Positions 1 through 6,000 of a stretch of 64,000 nucleotides of DNA are shown here, one piece after another. Within the stretch, counting starts at the first letter, position 1. Each line of letters starts with the position of its first letter. Origin of the DNA: Escherichia coli (lineage in GTDB: Bacteria; Pseudomonadota; Gammaproteobacteria; Enterobacterales; Enterobacteriaceae); assembly GCF_030013205.1 (NCBI RefSeq), contig NZ_CP122649.1, one strand, 5' to 3'. A program made the position numbers.

Positions 1-3000
1 CCTTGCACCTGTAACTTCAGAAGTCGATGAGATCATTCATCAAGCTCTAAGTTGCAAAAGTACGCAAAATTGCGATTCTCTGGCGCGTAAAACTCTGGCT
101 CTTTTAGAGCGTTTAAGGGATGAAGCAAAAGAGAAACAGCAAGAAGAGGAGCAGTCGAAAGACCCGCATGACGATACAGATGAATCATCTGGCTCTGAGA
201 ATGAACCTGATACCGAACCCAATGGTGATAGCCAGGGTGAAGGGGATGGTGATAAAGAAGGTCAAGGCGATGATTCTGGTGATGGTAAGGCGCCTGCGGA
301 AGGTAATGGGTTACCGGACCAATCCGGAGGGGATGAACAAAATGCTGAGAACTCTAACGGCGAACCTGATGGTGAGTCTGAAGGTGATGAATCGGCGACC
401 CCCGGCTCGGATGATGCTGACTCGACACCTTCCCTAAACGACAGTTCAAATGGAAATTCTTCTGATGGGGAAAGTAACTTTTCTCCTGAACAGTGGGATA
501 TGCTTGCCAAATTGCTGGATGATTTTTTAAACAGTGATGAGGAAAGCGAGGATTTTCATGAGGTTCTTGCAAAAGAGATCTCCGTAATTGCTGCCAGTGT
601 GTCGGATGAGGTTAAAGCTGAATTTGGTGCAAGTGAGTGGGATGTTCCAGATTTGAACATTGATCTGAATGTCTACAATGAAGCATTAAATATCAGCCAG
701 ACCCTTGGGGCAGATTTATCTGTTTTACAGCAGGTAAAAATGCGTGGTCAATTTAAAACCCGTGATAGAGGCTTGTCATTCGATATTAATCGACTGATCC
801 AGTCTCCGATGGGTGTTAGGGATGTATTTCGGTCACAAAGCGAATCTAAAAACCGGGGCCACGTCGGCTTGGTCATTGTTCGTGATATTTCAGGTTCAAT
901 GAGTCTGGAACACCGTTATATCCATGCAATTAAGACTGACCTTGCATTAACTCTGGCAATTGAAGCTATTTCAAAAATGCATGTTGCTAATGTGATTTAT
1001 CCGTTTGTAGACAAAGATTTTGAAGTTATCAAAACGTTTGATGAAAACGCGGAAGAGAAACTTTCAAAATTCTCACTTGGCTGCAAGGGCAATAATACCC
1101 CAACGGGTTCTGCATTAAATGCTGCTTTAGAGTTGTTACTTGAAAGCCAGTTTGACAGGAAAATTGTTTTCCTTATTACTGATGGTTATCCGACTGAGTC
1201 GGCTTACACCATTAATGATGTTTTTTCAGTTGCTGAAAGTAACGGCATTGAAATCGCTGGTGTTGGTATTAAAACTGATGTGTTGATGGGTTTTAATGAG
1301 GGCACCTTCGTAAATGTTGATGATATTTCTTTATTGCCGAATGAGGTCAGTAAATTAGTACATCAAATTCTATCTAATTAAACTCTACCCAATCGGGGCA
1401 AAACGACGCCCGGTTGGGTCGCTTTGCTCCCTGAAGGATTAAGGAGCAATATATGACTCAGATAAAGACTTACCGTGTCGAGTATGAAAAAGTCGGGACG
1501 ATGCATCGTGTCCGTATTTTTGGTCGCATGGGTGAAATTGTCAAAAGTGAATTGCCAGAAGAAAGAATTCTCCGGGATGTATCTATACCAGAGGGTAATG
1601 GAGAAATGGCAACGTCAATGGTTGATGGTTTTATCCAGCGTCTTGAAAATATCGGCTTCAAGACTGAAGCGTAATTGTTGAGGGCTCTTGTGGGCCCTCA
1701 TTCTTAGATTCTGCGTTGTGGGTTTCTCCCTGTTTTCTGCATCGCAGAGGGCATTGAGAAACCCACAATGCCAGATAAGAGAGAACAAATGACTTATGCA
1801 TCCCAGGCTGTTAAGCGTACACCACATGAAGTCACTGACCACTTTATAAAAATGGTTCACGCTCGTATAGCGGAAGTATCAGGCTGGCGCTATGTATTCG
1901 ATAGAATACCGGCATTTAAAGACGCTTGTGATAAAGCACCTGGCCAGGTTCCTTGCCCATTTAGTGGGGTCGGGAAATCAAAGTTCCGGTTCCGTAAAAA
2001 GGACCTCTTTACCGGTTGTGCCATTCACAATGATTTTCCAGTGAATGCATTTTGTGACGGTATTGATGTATTGGCAGAGTACTACAAGCTGAGCAAGACC
2101 CAGACTTGTAAGAAGATCCTGACTGATTTCTTTGGGATGGATTTGTACGCTCCATTAACTGATGCGGATCTCGAAAGTGAACGTCGTTATAAATCAACAG
2201 TTCGTGCAACCGAAACGCTTGACAGCGATGAAGTTGAAAAACGAGGGCGTAAACTTGAAGTGATATATCACTATACCGGTGAAATCAAACCTGAGAGCCC
2301 TGTGTGGGTGTATCTCCGAAATCGAGGTCTTAATCGAGTTCTGAGCAACCTTCCCAAGGATTTAGGTCTGAACAAACGACTTTACTACATGGATAAGTCA
2401 CTGGAAAAACCCACGATTTACCCGGGAATGATCGCAATTTATCGCGATACCCGTGGGCGTCCTCTGACAATCCACAGAACGTTCGTCGAGTTAAATGGTG
2501 ATAAGGCACATGTTGAGAATCCGAAACTGATGATGAAACCGCCTGCCGATATGACTGGCGGCTCAATTCAGCTGTACGATCCACACTTCAATCCAGGTAC
2601 CCGTACCTGGACGTTAGGTGTGGCTGAAGGCATAGAAAACGCGCTGTCAGTTACTGAAGCGACTTCAACACCGTGCTGGGCCGCGAGCTCTGCCTGGTGC
2701 CTTGAAAACGTTGAAGTGCCGGATAGTCTCCTGCCTCCCCCTGGTGTGAAAGTAATACAGTTTTACATCTGGGCGGATAAGGATCTTGTGAATACAAAAG
2801 GCACTTCCCCGGGAATGGAGTCAGCTAAACGACTTCAGGAACGTATGAAAGAGTTTTTTGCAAAGCGATATCCCACTTCAGAGCTGACAATTAAAGTCTT
2901 TGAACCTGATTTCGATATTCCTGTAGGGAAGAAAGGAGTCGACTGGAACGATGTACTAAAATTAACAGGACCGGATGGATTCCCCGTAAAATGGGCTCCT

Positions 3001-6000
3001 GAATGTCTTGCTCAGCTTTAAATCCGATAACTCCCCCGCCTTTTCAGGCCGGGGGGGTTATCTCTTTAGTGTTTATTTACGTTAAATCCTAAACAGATAA
3101 TCCGATTTCCTTCGTGAAAATCACCTGTTATTCAGGTTTTTTTTACGGCTGAGATGCTTGCTCAGTTTAATAAATGTGCGATACATCTGGCTACGGTCGG
3201 TTGTATGACATGGTATATCCATAAAACTTAAAACCCCTGACGGGAGTATTACCGTTAGGGTGATGCTCATCGTTAAATATCGGAGAGCATTGTTATGAAT
3301 ATTGAAAATCAAGATTTATTTAATACGTTCGCTGCTGTGATTTCATCTCATATCGTTGAGCAACCATCTTCGTGTTATTACCTTCATGATAATGAAATTG
3401 ACTTCACGATTTTAAAACACAGCATAATAGATAAAGACAAAAACCTGTTGTACGTTATTCGTCCTTCAGGAACCTGTTTGTTGCGTTGTGATAAATACTT
3501 CTTTCCGAATTACTATCTTACAAGTCGTGGAGATTATAAAGCATTTAAGTATGTGCATTTTAATCTTGCAACACGAGAAGCGGAAGAAATCACCTGGCAG
3601 CAAGCTTTTGAAATTTTGTCCAAGCCGGGAAGACCTCCATTAAGAGGTTCACTTGGTAAATTTGATTATTTAAAACTTGTTATTGATGATCTTCGTGCGC
3701 GAGGGTATGCCGATTTCCTTCCAGCATACAACCTTGATGGCCTTCGTCACTTTGCAGTAAAGGATGAGCGACCATCACTTGTCAGTTATATCGACAATGT
3801 CATGGCACTTTGCGCATAAAGATAACACATATTTTTACTACATCCCTGATGGCACCTCCCATCGGGGTGGCCCTCAGAGTTGAATCTGGAGGTCTTATGA
3901 AATTAGCTACAGATCTGGTCAATGCGGTTCTGATAAAGAATGGCATTGTACCAACTTCCATTAATGAGTTGCCTGTAACGTCGCTGGTAAAGCCATTGAC
4001 ACAAGTGCATCTCAGCCTGTATCTGAAAACAACGCATTTATCTCAGTTCGTCCCTGACTACGTTGAGTCTCTGAAAGATTGTCCGGTTTCGTATGATATC
4101 GGCCTTGAACTTCAGCAGTGTATCAACAGTGCTGAATTGCTCTGTGAAGACATGGAGTCACTTGAGTTTATCTCTGTATGGATAGAGCTCTATACGTGTA
4201 ATTCAAAGCAACAGCGGTTTGAGAAAAGTAACTTTTCTTTTCGAACTGAAGATATCGAGCTGGCTAAGATGCTGTCTTGCTCGCATGAAATCTTAATAAG
4301 TCAGGCGGCTTGTTTCTGGCTTTTGTATTTTGAAGATTTCATGAAATATGTTCGTAATAGGCTCTGTGCATTACTCAGACAGGTTTTAATTTTGATTGCA
4401 GGACTGCGAAATGTATACCTGCAACGGAATGAAGATCAGTTGATTAAGAGAGTTAAGCACGGGAATGAAATGCTGGAGGTGACTCTTAAAGCTGTTGCAC
4501 TATGTTCAATAGAAAGGTATCTGAAATCATATGCCTCTTTACGAACAGAAGCGGCGGCTTCTGGGTTTATCAAATGCATTCAGTCTTATATCAGTACTGG
4601 TTGGAGACATGGCTATATAGTCTGTCAATATTCAAAAAATGGACGGTCTCTTGGTAAGTCATTACCACTTTTTATAAAAGAGACATCTGAGCATAATATA
4701 CAGAAACGTGTCAATCGCCTTATATCTTCCACGATTTCGGGGCGAAATAAAGATTTAGGTCTTTACGATTTCTGATTAACATTACCCATCCGGGGATTAC
4801 ATCCCTGATGGGTGTAATCCCATTTTTTATTTAAGTGAGGATTACATGAAAATTATTGAGAAAATCATTAATGCATTTCTGATATCGCGTAAACATTCAG
4901 TGAAGGTCAGTAATGTTATCTGCTTGAGTGGCACCGACGGTAAATTTACTGGAATATGCTGTGACGCCGATGTTTCATTTGATTTTCTTTATTCGTATGC
5001 CCCCGCATACAGTTCAACATTTTTAGATATCCCGTTTCCTGGGTTTGAAGACCAGGACATCGCGGATTGTGTTAAATGTCAGTTAGATGTAGTTAAAAAT
5101 AAACGGAATCGGTCTTTTTTAATTGACCATATTAGATTTCCAGTTTCCTCAAGGGAAGGATTCACTCTGACACGCGGTGATAGTTACGACGTGACTGAAT
5201 GTGAATATAATAAGGAACGATTGCTACATCTGACCCGACAAGGACGTTTTTGTGAAGACTATCTCACGTTCAAGGATGGCCTGAGTTCCTTCTTTTCATT
5301 TGTGAATTTCGAATTACATGAAATAGTGAAGGAAGGTATACGTTTGGCACTTGATGTTTTAAACAAGATTACATCTGATCAACCAGACCGTCTTATAAAA
5401 GACTTTAAGTATCATGATTGCTTCGGCAGTTATAATGTACAAATATTTTCTAAGGGTCTGCCAGTTGATATCCTTGAAACGATGATTGCACCTGATAGGT
5501 TGTTGTCTAACTTGTCAGGTAGTCGTCAGATTATGAAAAATGCAAGTCGCTATCTTAAAGGCTTTGCCCTCAGTAATCGTGTTTACATGAAATACGGATG
5601 GCGTTTAGCAGATGTTGACACATCTGACTATGCGAAAGTTATGTCAGATAGAGAAATGCATGCCAGAGATGATCTTAAGGCGTTTTGCAGTGTCTTTTTT
5701 AAAGAGTGTTTCGCATCCGGAAAATATGAATACGAAGCATACCTGAGTGAAAGACAACACGCGATTCGTAACGGGTATTAATACTTATTATCAACTTATC
5801 TAATCCCTGAGGGAATTCTTCCCTTGGGGAGGATTCCCTCTTAACCGAGGGCTACAAAATGAAAGCGATTTATAAAATAATTGAAGCGATGCTGGTGAAA
5901 ATGGGCTTTGAAGGTGCCGTGATCCAAAGTGTCAATCTGGAAACGGGTGTGATTCAGAGTCTAGTTGTTAAGGCTGATATTCCTGTCCGGACTTTAATGC

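Follow-up and report, generated by a model that had tools for sequence, protein, structure and literature searches.

The window analysed here is a stretch of 64,000 nt from Escherichia coli (contig NZ_CP122649.1, assembly GCF_030013205.1), whose 5′ end carries part of a gene module of a conjugative IncHI1 plasmid: a gene for a vWA-domain protein, cut by the window edge, a small open reading frame (ORF), a conserved hairpin and a gene for a predicted primase-like protein with a Toprim domain. Window positions 1-6000 are 100% identical to IncHI1 plasmids, with 282 plasmid records matching, including pHCM1 of Salmonella Typhi CT18 and R27, and the window is collinear with pHCM1 90156-114499, followed by further backbone and resistance inserts. 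The carrier plasmid is typed as conjugative IncHI1, MOBH/MPF_F, which bears out the conjugative-plasmid context proposed in a preliminary description of this DNA. The vWA ORF enters the window at its 5′ edge in frame 2 and its stop codon lies at 1379-1381; the gene start and the N-domain with its HExxH motif occupy the 633 nt upstream of the window, and the full 670-aa gene was read in pHCM1. The features of this gene within the window are as follows.

2..1381, plus strand: residues 212-670 (the C-terminal 459 aa) of a CobT-family vWA adaptor of 670 aa, WP_000667080.1, from the ORF call and the full gene in pHCM1
119..484, plus strand: acidic D/E/G/S low-complexity tether, protein residues 251-372 (window residues 40-161), from composition and predicted disorder
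728..862, plus strand: conserved shaft-like segment QQVKMRGQFKTRDRGLSFDINRLIQSPMGVRDVFRSQSESKNRGH, residues 454-498, which aligns with the CobT shaft region
863..1378, plus strand: vWA domain with its MIDAS (metal-ion-dependent adhesion site), DxSxS at nt 884-898, TPTGS at 1097-1111 and TDG at 1178-1186

A profile search of the whole library returned 9060 relatives of the vWA protein (866 of them at E <= 1e-30), and the relatives sampled pass both Pfam CobT, which covers the N-domain, and CobT_C. When the IncHI clade was aligned by hhalign with the CobT/CobT_C-positive relatives, the match had a probability of 100% and extended through 561 columns, from residue 46 to residue 670 (E 1e-38); residues 46-250, with the HExxH and NxxxD/E...E motifs, were covered in the alignment to relatives that pass Pfam CobT. 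Single-sequence searches of the Protein Data Bank (PDB) with the vWA protein gave nothing useful, and the top solved-structure match of its profile was the cobaltochelatase subunit CobT (9uka_G, E 8.7e-7). Conservation was assessed in 141 full-length relatives sharing at most 50% pairwise identity. The HExxH motif near residue 70 (HEAGH at residues 70-74 of the full-length protein) was kept in 139 of them and the DxSxS MIDAS motif in all 141, and P51, H70, E71, H74, D133, D506, S508, S510, M511, D605 and G606 were invariant in a 127-sequence alignment. The vWA domain recognized in the preliminary description is thus well founded, being matched by Pfam VWA (E 3.7e-8) and having MIDAS residues (D506, S508, S510 and D605) that are unchanged across the 127 relatives. 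The QQVKMRGQFKTRDRGLSFDINRLIQSPMGVRDVFRSQSESKNRGH segment ranks with the most strongly conserved stretches of the protein and aligned to CobT residues ~357-410; judging by these alignments, it would be the equivalent of the CobT shaft that inserts into the CobS ring. An AF2 model of the protein had a mean predicted local distance difference test score (pLDDT) of 83.8, with disorder confined to the linker, and the folds closest to the model were the MIDAS domains of Rea1/MDN1 and NorD of the NorQD complex. Taken together, it is very probable that the first gene encodes a full-length CobT-family adaptor composed of a zincin-like HExxH N-domain, an acidic tether, a shaft-like segment and a MIDAS vWA domain.

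The acidic stretch had been described as a 150-residue run of D/E/G/S repeats leading into the vWA domain. The tract is real, with a D+E excess of P ~4e-10 at a proteome-like D+E frequency of 0.115, but its form is different: it comprises 122 residues (33% D+E, 31% G+S, 2.5% hydrophobic, net charge -35), begins after an ordinary helix formed by window residues 1-39, and is separated from the vWA core by ~125 structured residues. True repeats are limited to a single weak 24-nt array of 2.1 copies, the rest being compositional bias. In the AF2 model the pLDDT was below 50 over most of residues 274-365, inside a low-confidence span of residues 264-372. All 141 relatives carry an acidic tract, placed at ~41% of the protein length and with a median peak D+E of 0.5 per 60 aa. 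Among the closer homologues the linker varies from ~50 to 200 residues, and in plasmids of Yersinia and Buttiauxella it turns into a Q/D repeat; the profile alignment showed that the linker of solved CobT (9uka_G) is an equally acidic D/E/S/G run. The acidic stretch is therefore the disordered tether of a CobT-type adaptor and a hallmark of the family. The earlier proposal that it marks a DNA-mimic or anti-restriction protein fails because the tract is a variable, disordered linker shared by the CobT family, set within a 670-aa adaptor and present in true CobT as well.

The preliminary description had called for a search for a partner AAA ATPase, and one was found upstream. A 350-aa AAA_5 protein (E 3.9e-32) is encoded 1.6 kb upstream of the vWA gene, with a DUF3150 gene and an 89-aa ORF standing between the two. 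Its Walker A (GESGSGKT) and Walker B (LLDEVD) motifs are intact. In the PDB it matched the AAA modules of Midasin (E 9e-21) and CobS (E 1e-10 over residues 42-302), followed by NorQ and CbbQ. Scores against the NCBIfam equivalogs were far below the cut-offs (35.6 versus 558 bits for CobS and 27.8 versus 779 bits for the chelatase). The proteins of the CobT-like/AAA pair matched phrog_459 and phrog_249 in PHROG. These results show that a CobS/Midasin/NorQ-type AAA+ ATPase is the motor of the vWA adaptor. A literature search on IncHI vWA genes and on DUF3150 found no functional study.

The position of the module was then considered relative to the transfer origin, oriT. The genes 5′ of it are rsp, trhF, trhW, trhU, trhN, a lipoprotein gene, trhI for a UvrD-like helicase and three unknown genes, so that the AAA/DUF3150/vWA module lies directly 3′ of the Tra2 mating-pair genes trhF/W/U/N and in the same orientation. 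No oriT was found in the upstream Tra2/TrhI stretch of pHCM1, and neither mobI nor a relaxase gene was found within the window. A study of Rts1 states that mobI directly adjoins oriT in R27 and SXT (PMC10838148), and oriT was placed here from this statement together with the mobI/relaxase annotation. In pHCM1, mobI, traD and the MobH relaxase gene are found at 201-208 kb and the vWA gene at 89.5-91.5 kb; in R27 the corresponding positions are 104-108 kb and 175.1-177.1 kb. The vWA gene is thus separated from the mobI/relaxase/oriT locus by ~110 kb in pHCM1 and, depending on the direction, by 66 kb or 111 kb in R27. Because mobI/oriT is 66-111 kb away, the module is not part of the leading region, and the earlier assignment to an early-entry gene set does not hold: it is backbone beside Tra2. 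What was found, namely an upstream context without a transfer origin and a protein of a metabolic family, is essentially the combination that the preliminary description had named as speaking against its own reading, yet metabolism is probably not the role of the protein here.

Comparison with other elements showed that the order of the module is common to IncHI1, IncHI2, IncHI1B, Yersinia and Vibrio plasmids. The full order trhN, lipoprotein gene, trhI, three ORFs, AAA, small ORF, DUF3150, vWA, 72-73-aa ORF and toprim is kept at 40-47% vWA identity, and the same IncHI gene order is retained in Klebsiella IncHI1B plasmids at ~36% vWA identity. In p123 of Vibrio tubiashii, a distant MOBH plasmid, the order is ssb, recT, lambda-exo, AAA, ORF, DUF3150, vWA, two ORFs and toprim, the p123 and IncHI Toprim proteins sharing 27% identity (E 5e-20). 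In an IncC plasmid it is AAA, ORF, ssb, bet, exo, DUF3150 and vWA, with no Toprim gene in the stretch inspected. The counterpart operon of SXT is activated by SetCD together with the transfer genes, and deletions of bet, exo, s067, s068 and s070 reduce SXT transfer by at most 10-fold; we infer from gene order alone that s067 and s068 are the SXT orthologues of module genes. All MOBH conjugative-element loci that were inspected contained DUF3150, and the Toprim gene was seen in the loci of IncHI type and of Vibrio p123.

A phage-like set of 80 IMG/VR loci with a CobT-like gene (contigs of ~100 kb, classed as viral) was also inspected. In 76 of the 80, the CobT-like gene was immediately followed by the AAA gene (median gap 97 nt), and 67 had a DnaE-type polymerase fused to uracil-DNA-glycosylase (UDG) near the pair. 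Other recurrent neighbours were an ATP-dependent ligase, an integrase, PhoH, a sigma factor and ParA/TrfA, and one plasmid-like contig combined the CobT-like/AAA arrangement with TrfA and ParA. Since the AAA pairing is found in both MOBH and phage-like loci, the AAA+/CobT-like pair is the conserved core. DNA replication and recombination are the steady theme of the module neighbourhoods. As a separate observation, the IMG/VR contigs that carry the pair look like self-replicating integrative or phage-plasmid elements.

Downstream of the vWA gene, the module continues with the following features.

1382..1452, plus strand: intercistronic spacer with two hairpins (z -3.6), the 3′ arm of the second holding the Shine-Dalgarno sequence of the next gene
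1453..1674, plus strand: conserved 72-73-aa ORF between the vWA and Toprim genes
1711..1775, plus strand: nested ~65-nt hairpin directly 5′ of the Toprim gene, minimum free energy -42.8 kcal/mol, z -6.9
1789..3021, plus strand: predicted primase-like gene, 410 aa from M8 (417 aa from the alternative start at 1768), from Pfam, PHROG and alignment
1954-2061, plus strand: degenerate Zn-ribbon region of the Toprim gene, from alignment
~2248-2547, plus strand: DUF7146 of the Toprim gene, E 2.9e-16
~2614-2976, plus strand: Toprim domain (Toprim_3, E 9.4e-11), EGIE at 2626-2637, DKD at 2776-2784 and VDWND at 2938-2952

That a Toprim primase-like gene follows the vWA gene had been noted before, and the DUF7146 and Toprim_3 matches, together with the match of the gene product to PHROG 510 'DNA primase' (E 4e-19), support it. 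The acidic Toprim residues E287, E290, D337 and D392 were invariant among 19 sequences with identity down to 26%, so that the Glu and DxD residues expected of a Toprim primase are present. The four-ligand zinc ribbon with which such a primase is expected to recognize its template is not: the primase zinc ribbon PF08273 (Prim_Zn_Ribbon) is present in distant homologues, whereas in the IncHI and Vibrio clades C63 is the sole invariant ligand and the CxxC/CxxC pattern of the distant relatives P0092 and P0095 has been lost. Neither single-sequence nor profile searches of the PDB found solved relatives. We regard the protein as a predicted primase-like enzyme. All 19 aligned homologues begin at the residue equivalent to M8, which AAGAGAGA precedes; the RefSeq start in an E. 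coli plasmid corresponds to window 1789, and the ATG at 1768 falls inside the 3′ arm of the hairpin. The gene thus probably starts at 1789 rather than 1768, the former being favoured because of the homologue alignment and the position of the ribosome-binding site.

No other DNA of the region is as conserved as the hairpin at 1711-1775, which has a four-way identity of 0.72-0.74 compared to 0.1-0.6 in the flanking coding DNA. It was found in 1969 plasmids and is 85-92% identical among IncHI1, IncHI2, IncHI1B and Yersinia plasmids whose flanking proteins are 36-70% identical, remaining at 85% where the vWA protein has fallen to ~36%. It is present in a single copy and shows few compensatory changes, and an Rfam search returned nothing credible for it. 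The hairpin is a candidate RNase III site, protein-binding site or single-stranded DNA priming signal. The 72-73-aa ORF shares 29-43% identity across five plasmid lineages, in which it keeps the same position, and had no family match in Pfam, NCBIfam or PHROG searches.

As a side observation, the two-hairpin folding of the spacer at 1382-1452 recurs in 11 of the 12 short spacers (58-93 nt) of the co-directional gene array, with z values from -2.2 to -9.1. Within the window such spacers lie at 1382-1452, 3821-3897, 4777-4846, 5783-5859, 6781-6852 and 7895-7964, and others at 15191-19368 of the upstream pHCM1 locus (L001). The first hairpin follows the pattern CCC-n4-GGGG-loop-CCCC-n4-GGG, and the second carries the Shine-Dalgarno sequence of the next gene in its 3′ arm. 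The spacer hairpins may exert translational control, which is of interest given the temperature-sensitive transfer of IncHI plasmids.

Among known systems, the closest parallel is CobS-CobT of the aerobic cobaltochelatase (CobSTN; PDB 9UKA and others), which has the same three-part adaptor and CobS-like AAA_5 partner, with homology at the profile level. A preprint on CobSTN describes CobT as made up of an N-domain resembling M48C peptidases, which binds the lid of CobS, a linker of ~90 residues that is disordered in cryo-EM, and a shaft plus vWA domain; the shaft (Q373-R413) enters the CobS ring upon nucleotide binding and CobN docks on the MIDAS side of CobT (bioRxiv 10.64898/2026.07.21.739949). 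The plasmid set differs in that it has no CobN client, carries DUF3150 in MOBH elements and has DNA-metabolism neighbours; in addition, HExxH is strictly conserved in the plasmid family, whereas a zinc site for CobT is not reported in the preprint. Tailed phages and archaeal viruses have two-gene cobST clusters that likewise place a CobT-like gene, there often annotated as a peptidase, and an AAA gene on a mobile element. In the plasmid, however, the two genes are split by DUF3150 and a small ORF, stand in reversed order (AAA first) and belong to a conjugative plasmid of hosts without CobN, to which a B12 role is unsuited. NorQ-NorD, CbbQ-CbbO and Midasin (Rea1/MDN1) include the top structural matches of the vWA domain and the top sequence matches of the AAA protein, and all remodel a client held by MIDAS. 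Midasin has a D/E-rich region ahead of its MIDAS domain. The clients of these systems are nitric oxide reductase, Rubisco and ribosome assembly factors, and they have no zincin-like N-domain. The predicted primase-like protein has in common with the Toprim primases of plasmids and phages (IncI Sog, IncP TraC and the N-terminal region of P4 alpha) a Toprim domain that carries the conserved Glu plus a DxD motif. Its EGIENA motif presumably sits at the position of the primase EGYATA motif, reportedly described by Strack and colleagues in 1992. It differs from Sog, TraC and P4 alpha in its degenerate Zn ribbon and in having neither a helicase nor a C-terminal extension, and its primase activity is a prediction. 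ArdA, Ocr and other DNA mimics resemble the acidic tract in strong negative charge alone: they are small, folded proteins with an ordered DNA-like surface, encoded near oriT, whereas the negative charge of the adaptor belongs to a disordered linker within a large, multi-domain protein encoded far from oriT. The module is another instance of the known AAA/CobT-like gene sets, in this case in an IncHI1 backbone.

By analogy with CobS-CobT, NorQ-NorD and Midasin, the AAA+ hexamer would grip the shaft and N-domain of the adaptor, while the acidic tether would let the two ends of the adaptor dock independently. The MIDAS face would hold a client, and ATP hydrolysis would remodel or activate it. DUF3150, from its constant company in MOBH elements, may be that client or a third subunit. 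From the company that the genes keep, the module, the Zn-ribbon-degenerate Toprim protein and TrhI would most likely serve the processing, priming or establishment of plasmid DNA. We take the primase-like enzyme to be a co-inherited partner of the motor-adaptor pair. We favour an ATP-driven motor-adaptor machine acting on a protein client in DNA replication or establishment of the element; the assignment to this biological process has, in our estimate, an even chance of being right. The best explanation as a whole, which joins the adaptor and the AAA+ motor to a role in DNA processing, priming or establishment during or after conjugation, is held with moderate confidence.

Several points weigh against this explanation. 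The AAA gene is not directly adjacent to the vWA gene in IncHI1, and DUF3150 and the IncHI-type Toprim family were absent from all 80 phage-like loci, so that the association of the pair with priming does not extend to every element. The model of DUF3150 is poor (pLDDT 61), its fold matches are generic helical bundles, and its casting as client or third subunit is pure conjecture. The putative M48C-like fold of the N-domain rests on homology to CobT, vWA matches having swamped both fold searches; conservation of HExxH could mean metal binding rather than proteolysis. Furthermore, if s067 and s068 are orthologues, their deletion lowered SXT transfer by no more than 10-fold, and the role of the module may be conditional or host-dependent.

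A more specific scheme is possible but rather unlikely. In it, the AAA+/adaptor/DUF3150 machine, possibly proteolytic, would act on DNA-bound proteins (the relaxase, the single-strand DNA-binding protein SSB or replisome parts) and license second-strand synthesis, with the Toprim protein priming at the 65-nt hairpin as RSF1010 RepB′ does at ssi hairpins.

A chaperone role in assembling the type IV secretion system (T4SS) or pilus apparatus would suit a module that lies directly downstream of trhF/W/U/N in the same orientation, the more so as the relatives NorQD, CbbQO and CobST activate or mature other protein complexes. This is nevertheless improbable: the module of IncC and Vibrio p123 is part of an ssb-bet-exo operon and not of the mating-pair formation genes, in phage-like elements without a T4SS it lies beside DnaE, and its likely SXT orthologues are dispensable for transfer.

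Still less probable is that the plasmid carries, as cargo, a MoxR-vWA conflict system that acts in exclusion or in defence against phages or plasmids. AAA+/vWA pairs are known from NTP-dependent conflict systems, and in PADLOC the AAA protein weakly matched IetA, DolB and SspC (E 2e-5 to 3e-4). These matches, however, are limited to the P-loop, and the vWA, DUF3150 and Toprim proteins had none. Unlike mobile defence islands, the module is a fixed part of the backbone with conserved synteny in IncHI1, IncHI2, IncHI1B, Yersinia and Vibrio plasmids, and it is embedded among replication and recombination genes.

A genuine chelatase, in which the plasmid CobS/CobT pair takes over a CobN-type subunit of the host for cobalamin or tetrapyrrole metalation, is very unlikely. 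The proteins do belong to the CobS and CobT families and a B12 role has already been proposed for the cobST clusters of tailed viruses, but the equivalog scores given above are far too low, and the ~198 kb of pHCM1 that were inspected have no annotated CobN-like gene, host genomes not having been searched. To our knowledge, the usual hosts (E. coli, Salmonella and Klebsiella) lack the aerobic CobN route. Moreover, a chelatase would leave the invariant HExxH, the DUF3150 partner and the DNA-metabolism neighbours unexplained.

Finally, it is scarcely credible that the protein is an anti-restriction factor or DNA mimic whose early expression from the leading region would shield incoming plasmid DNA: a tract of net charge -35 on a conjugative element and, in SXT/IncC, a neighbouring bet/exo operon co-regulated with transfer make a role in DNA entry conceivable, but the tract is disordered low complexity without conserved sequence or length, is embedded in a 670-aa protein between conserved domains and recurs in 141/141 relatives and true CobT, the genes lie 66-110 kb from mobI/oriT, and PADLOC, with no anti-defence library searched alongside it, offered nothing beyond the weak P-loop matches of the AAA protein.

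The reading of the module as a CobST-type motor-adaptor without a chelatase client discards the tempting anti-restriction label, offers a structural template and points to plasmid establishment. The module is kept in the backbone of IncHI, IncC and SXT/R391 elements, which are major carriers of multidrug resistance, and the conserved hairpin that precedes the gene for the primase-like protein, being small, lends itself to clean testing.

The surroundings of the module showed several further features. A promoter scan of the region gave predictions no better than those of shuffled sequences. Upstream of the window, at pHCM1 77433-80712, genes for a hypothetical protein and an ATP-dependent helicase and a small reverse-strand ORF are inserted between trhN and the lipoprotein gene; these extra genes are missing from the otherwise identical E. 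coli plasmid NZ_CP024236.1. On the 3′ side of the Toprim gene, six family-less ORFs on the plus strand (window 3295-8920; one of 174 aa, then five of 290-320 aa) are kept in distant IncHI-like plasmids, and paralogy of the five ~300-aa ORFs is not supported, their pairwise identity being just 11-16%. By correspondence with pHCM1, window 12177-13136, 14360-15541, 15756-15968 and 17554-18309 carry a Tus-like terminus-binding protein, a tyrosine recombinase, a Hha-family regulator and a repE replicon with flanking IS1 copies, respectively. Collinearity with the pHCM1 backbone is lost at window ~28130-45815, where the GC content is 0.53-0.62, typical of a resistance island, and where at least three IS26 copies (~30156-30975, ~38969-39788 and ~42723-43544) and strA/strB-like DNA are found.

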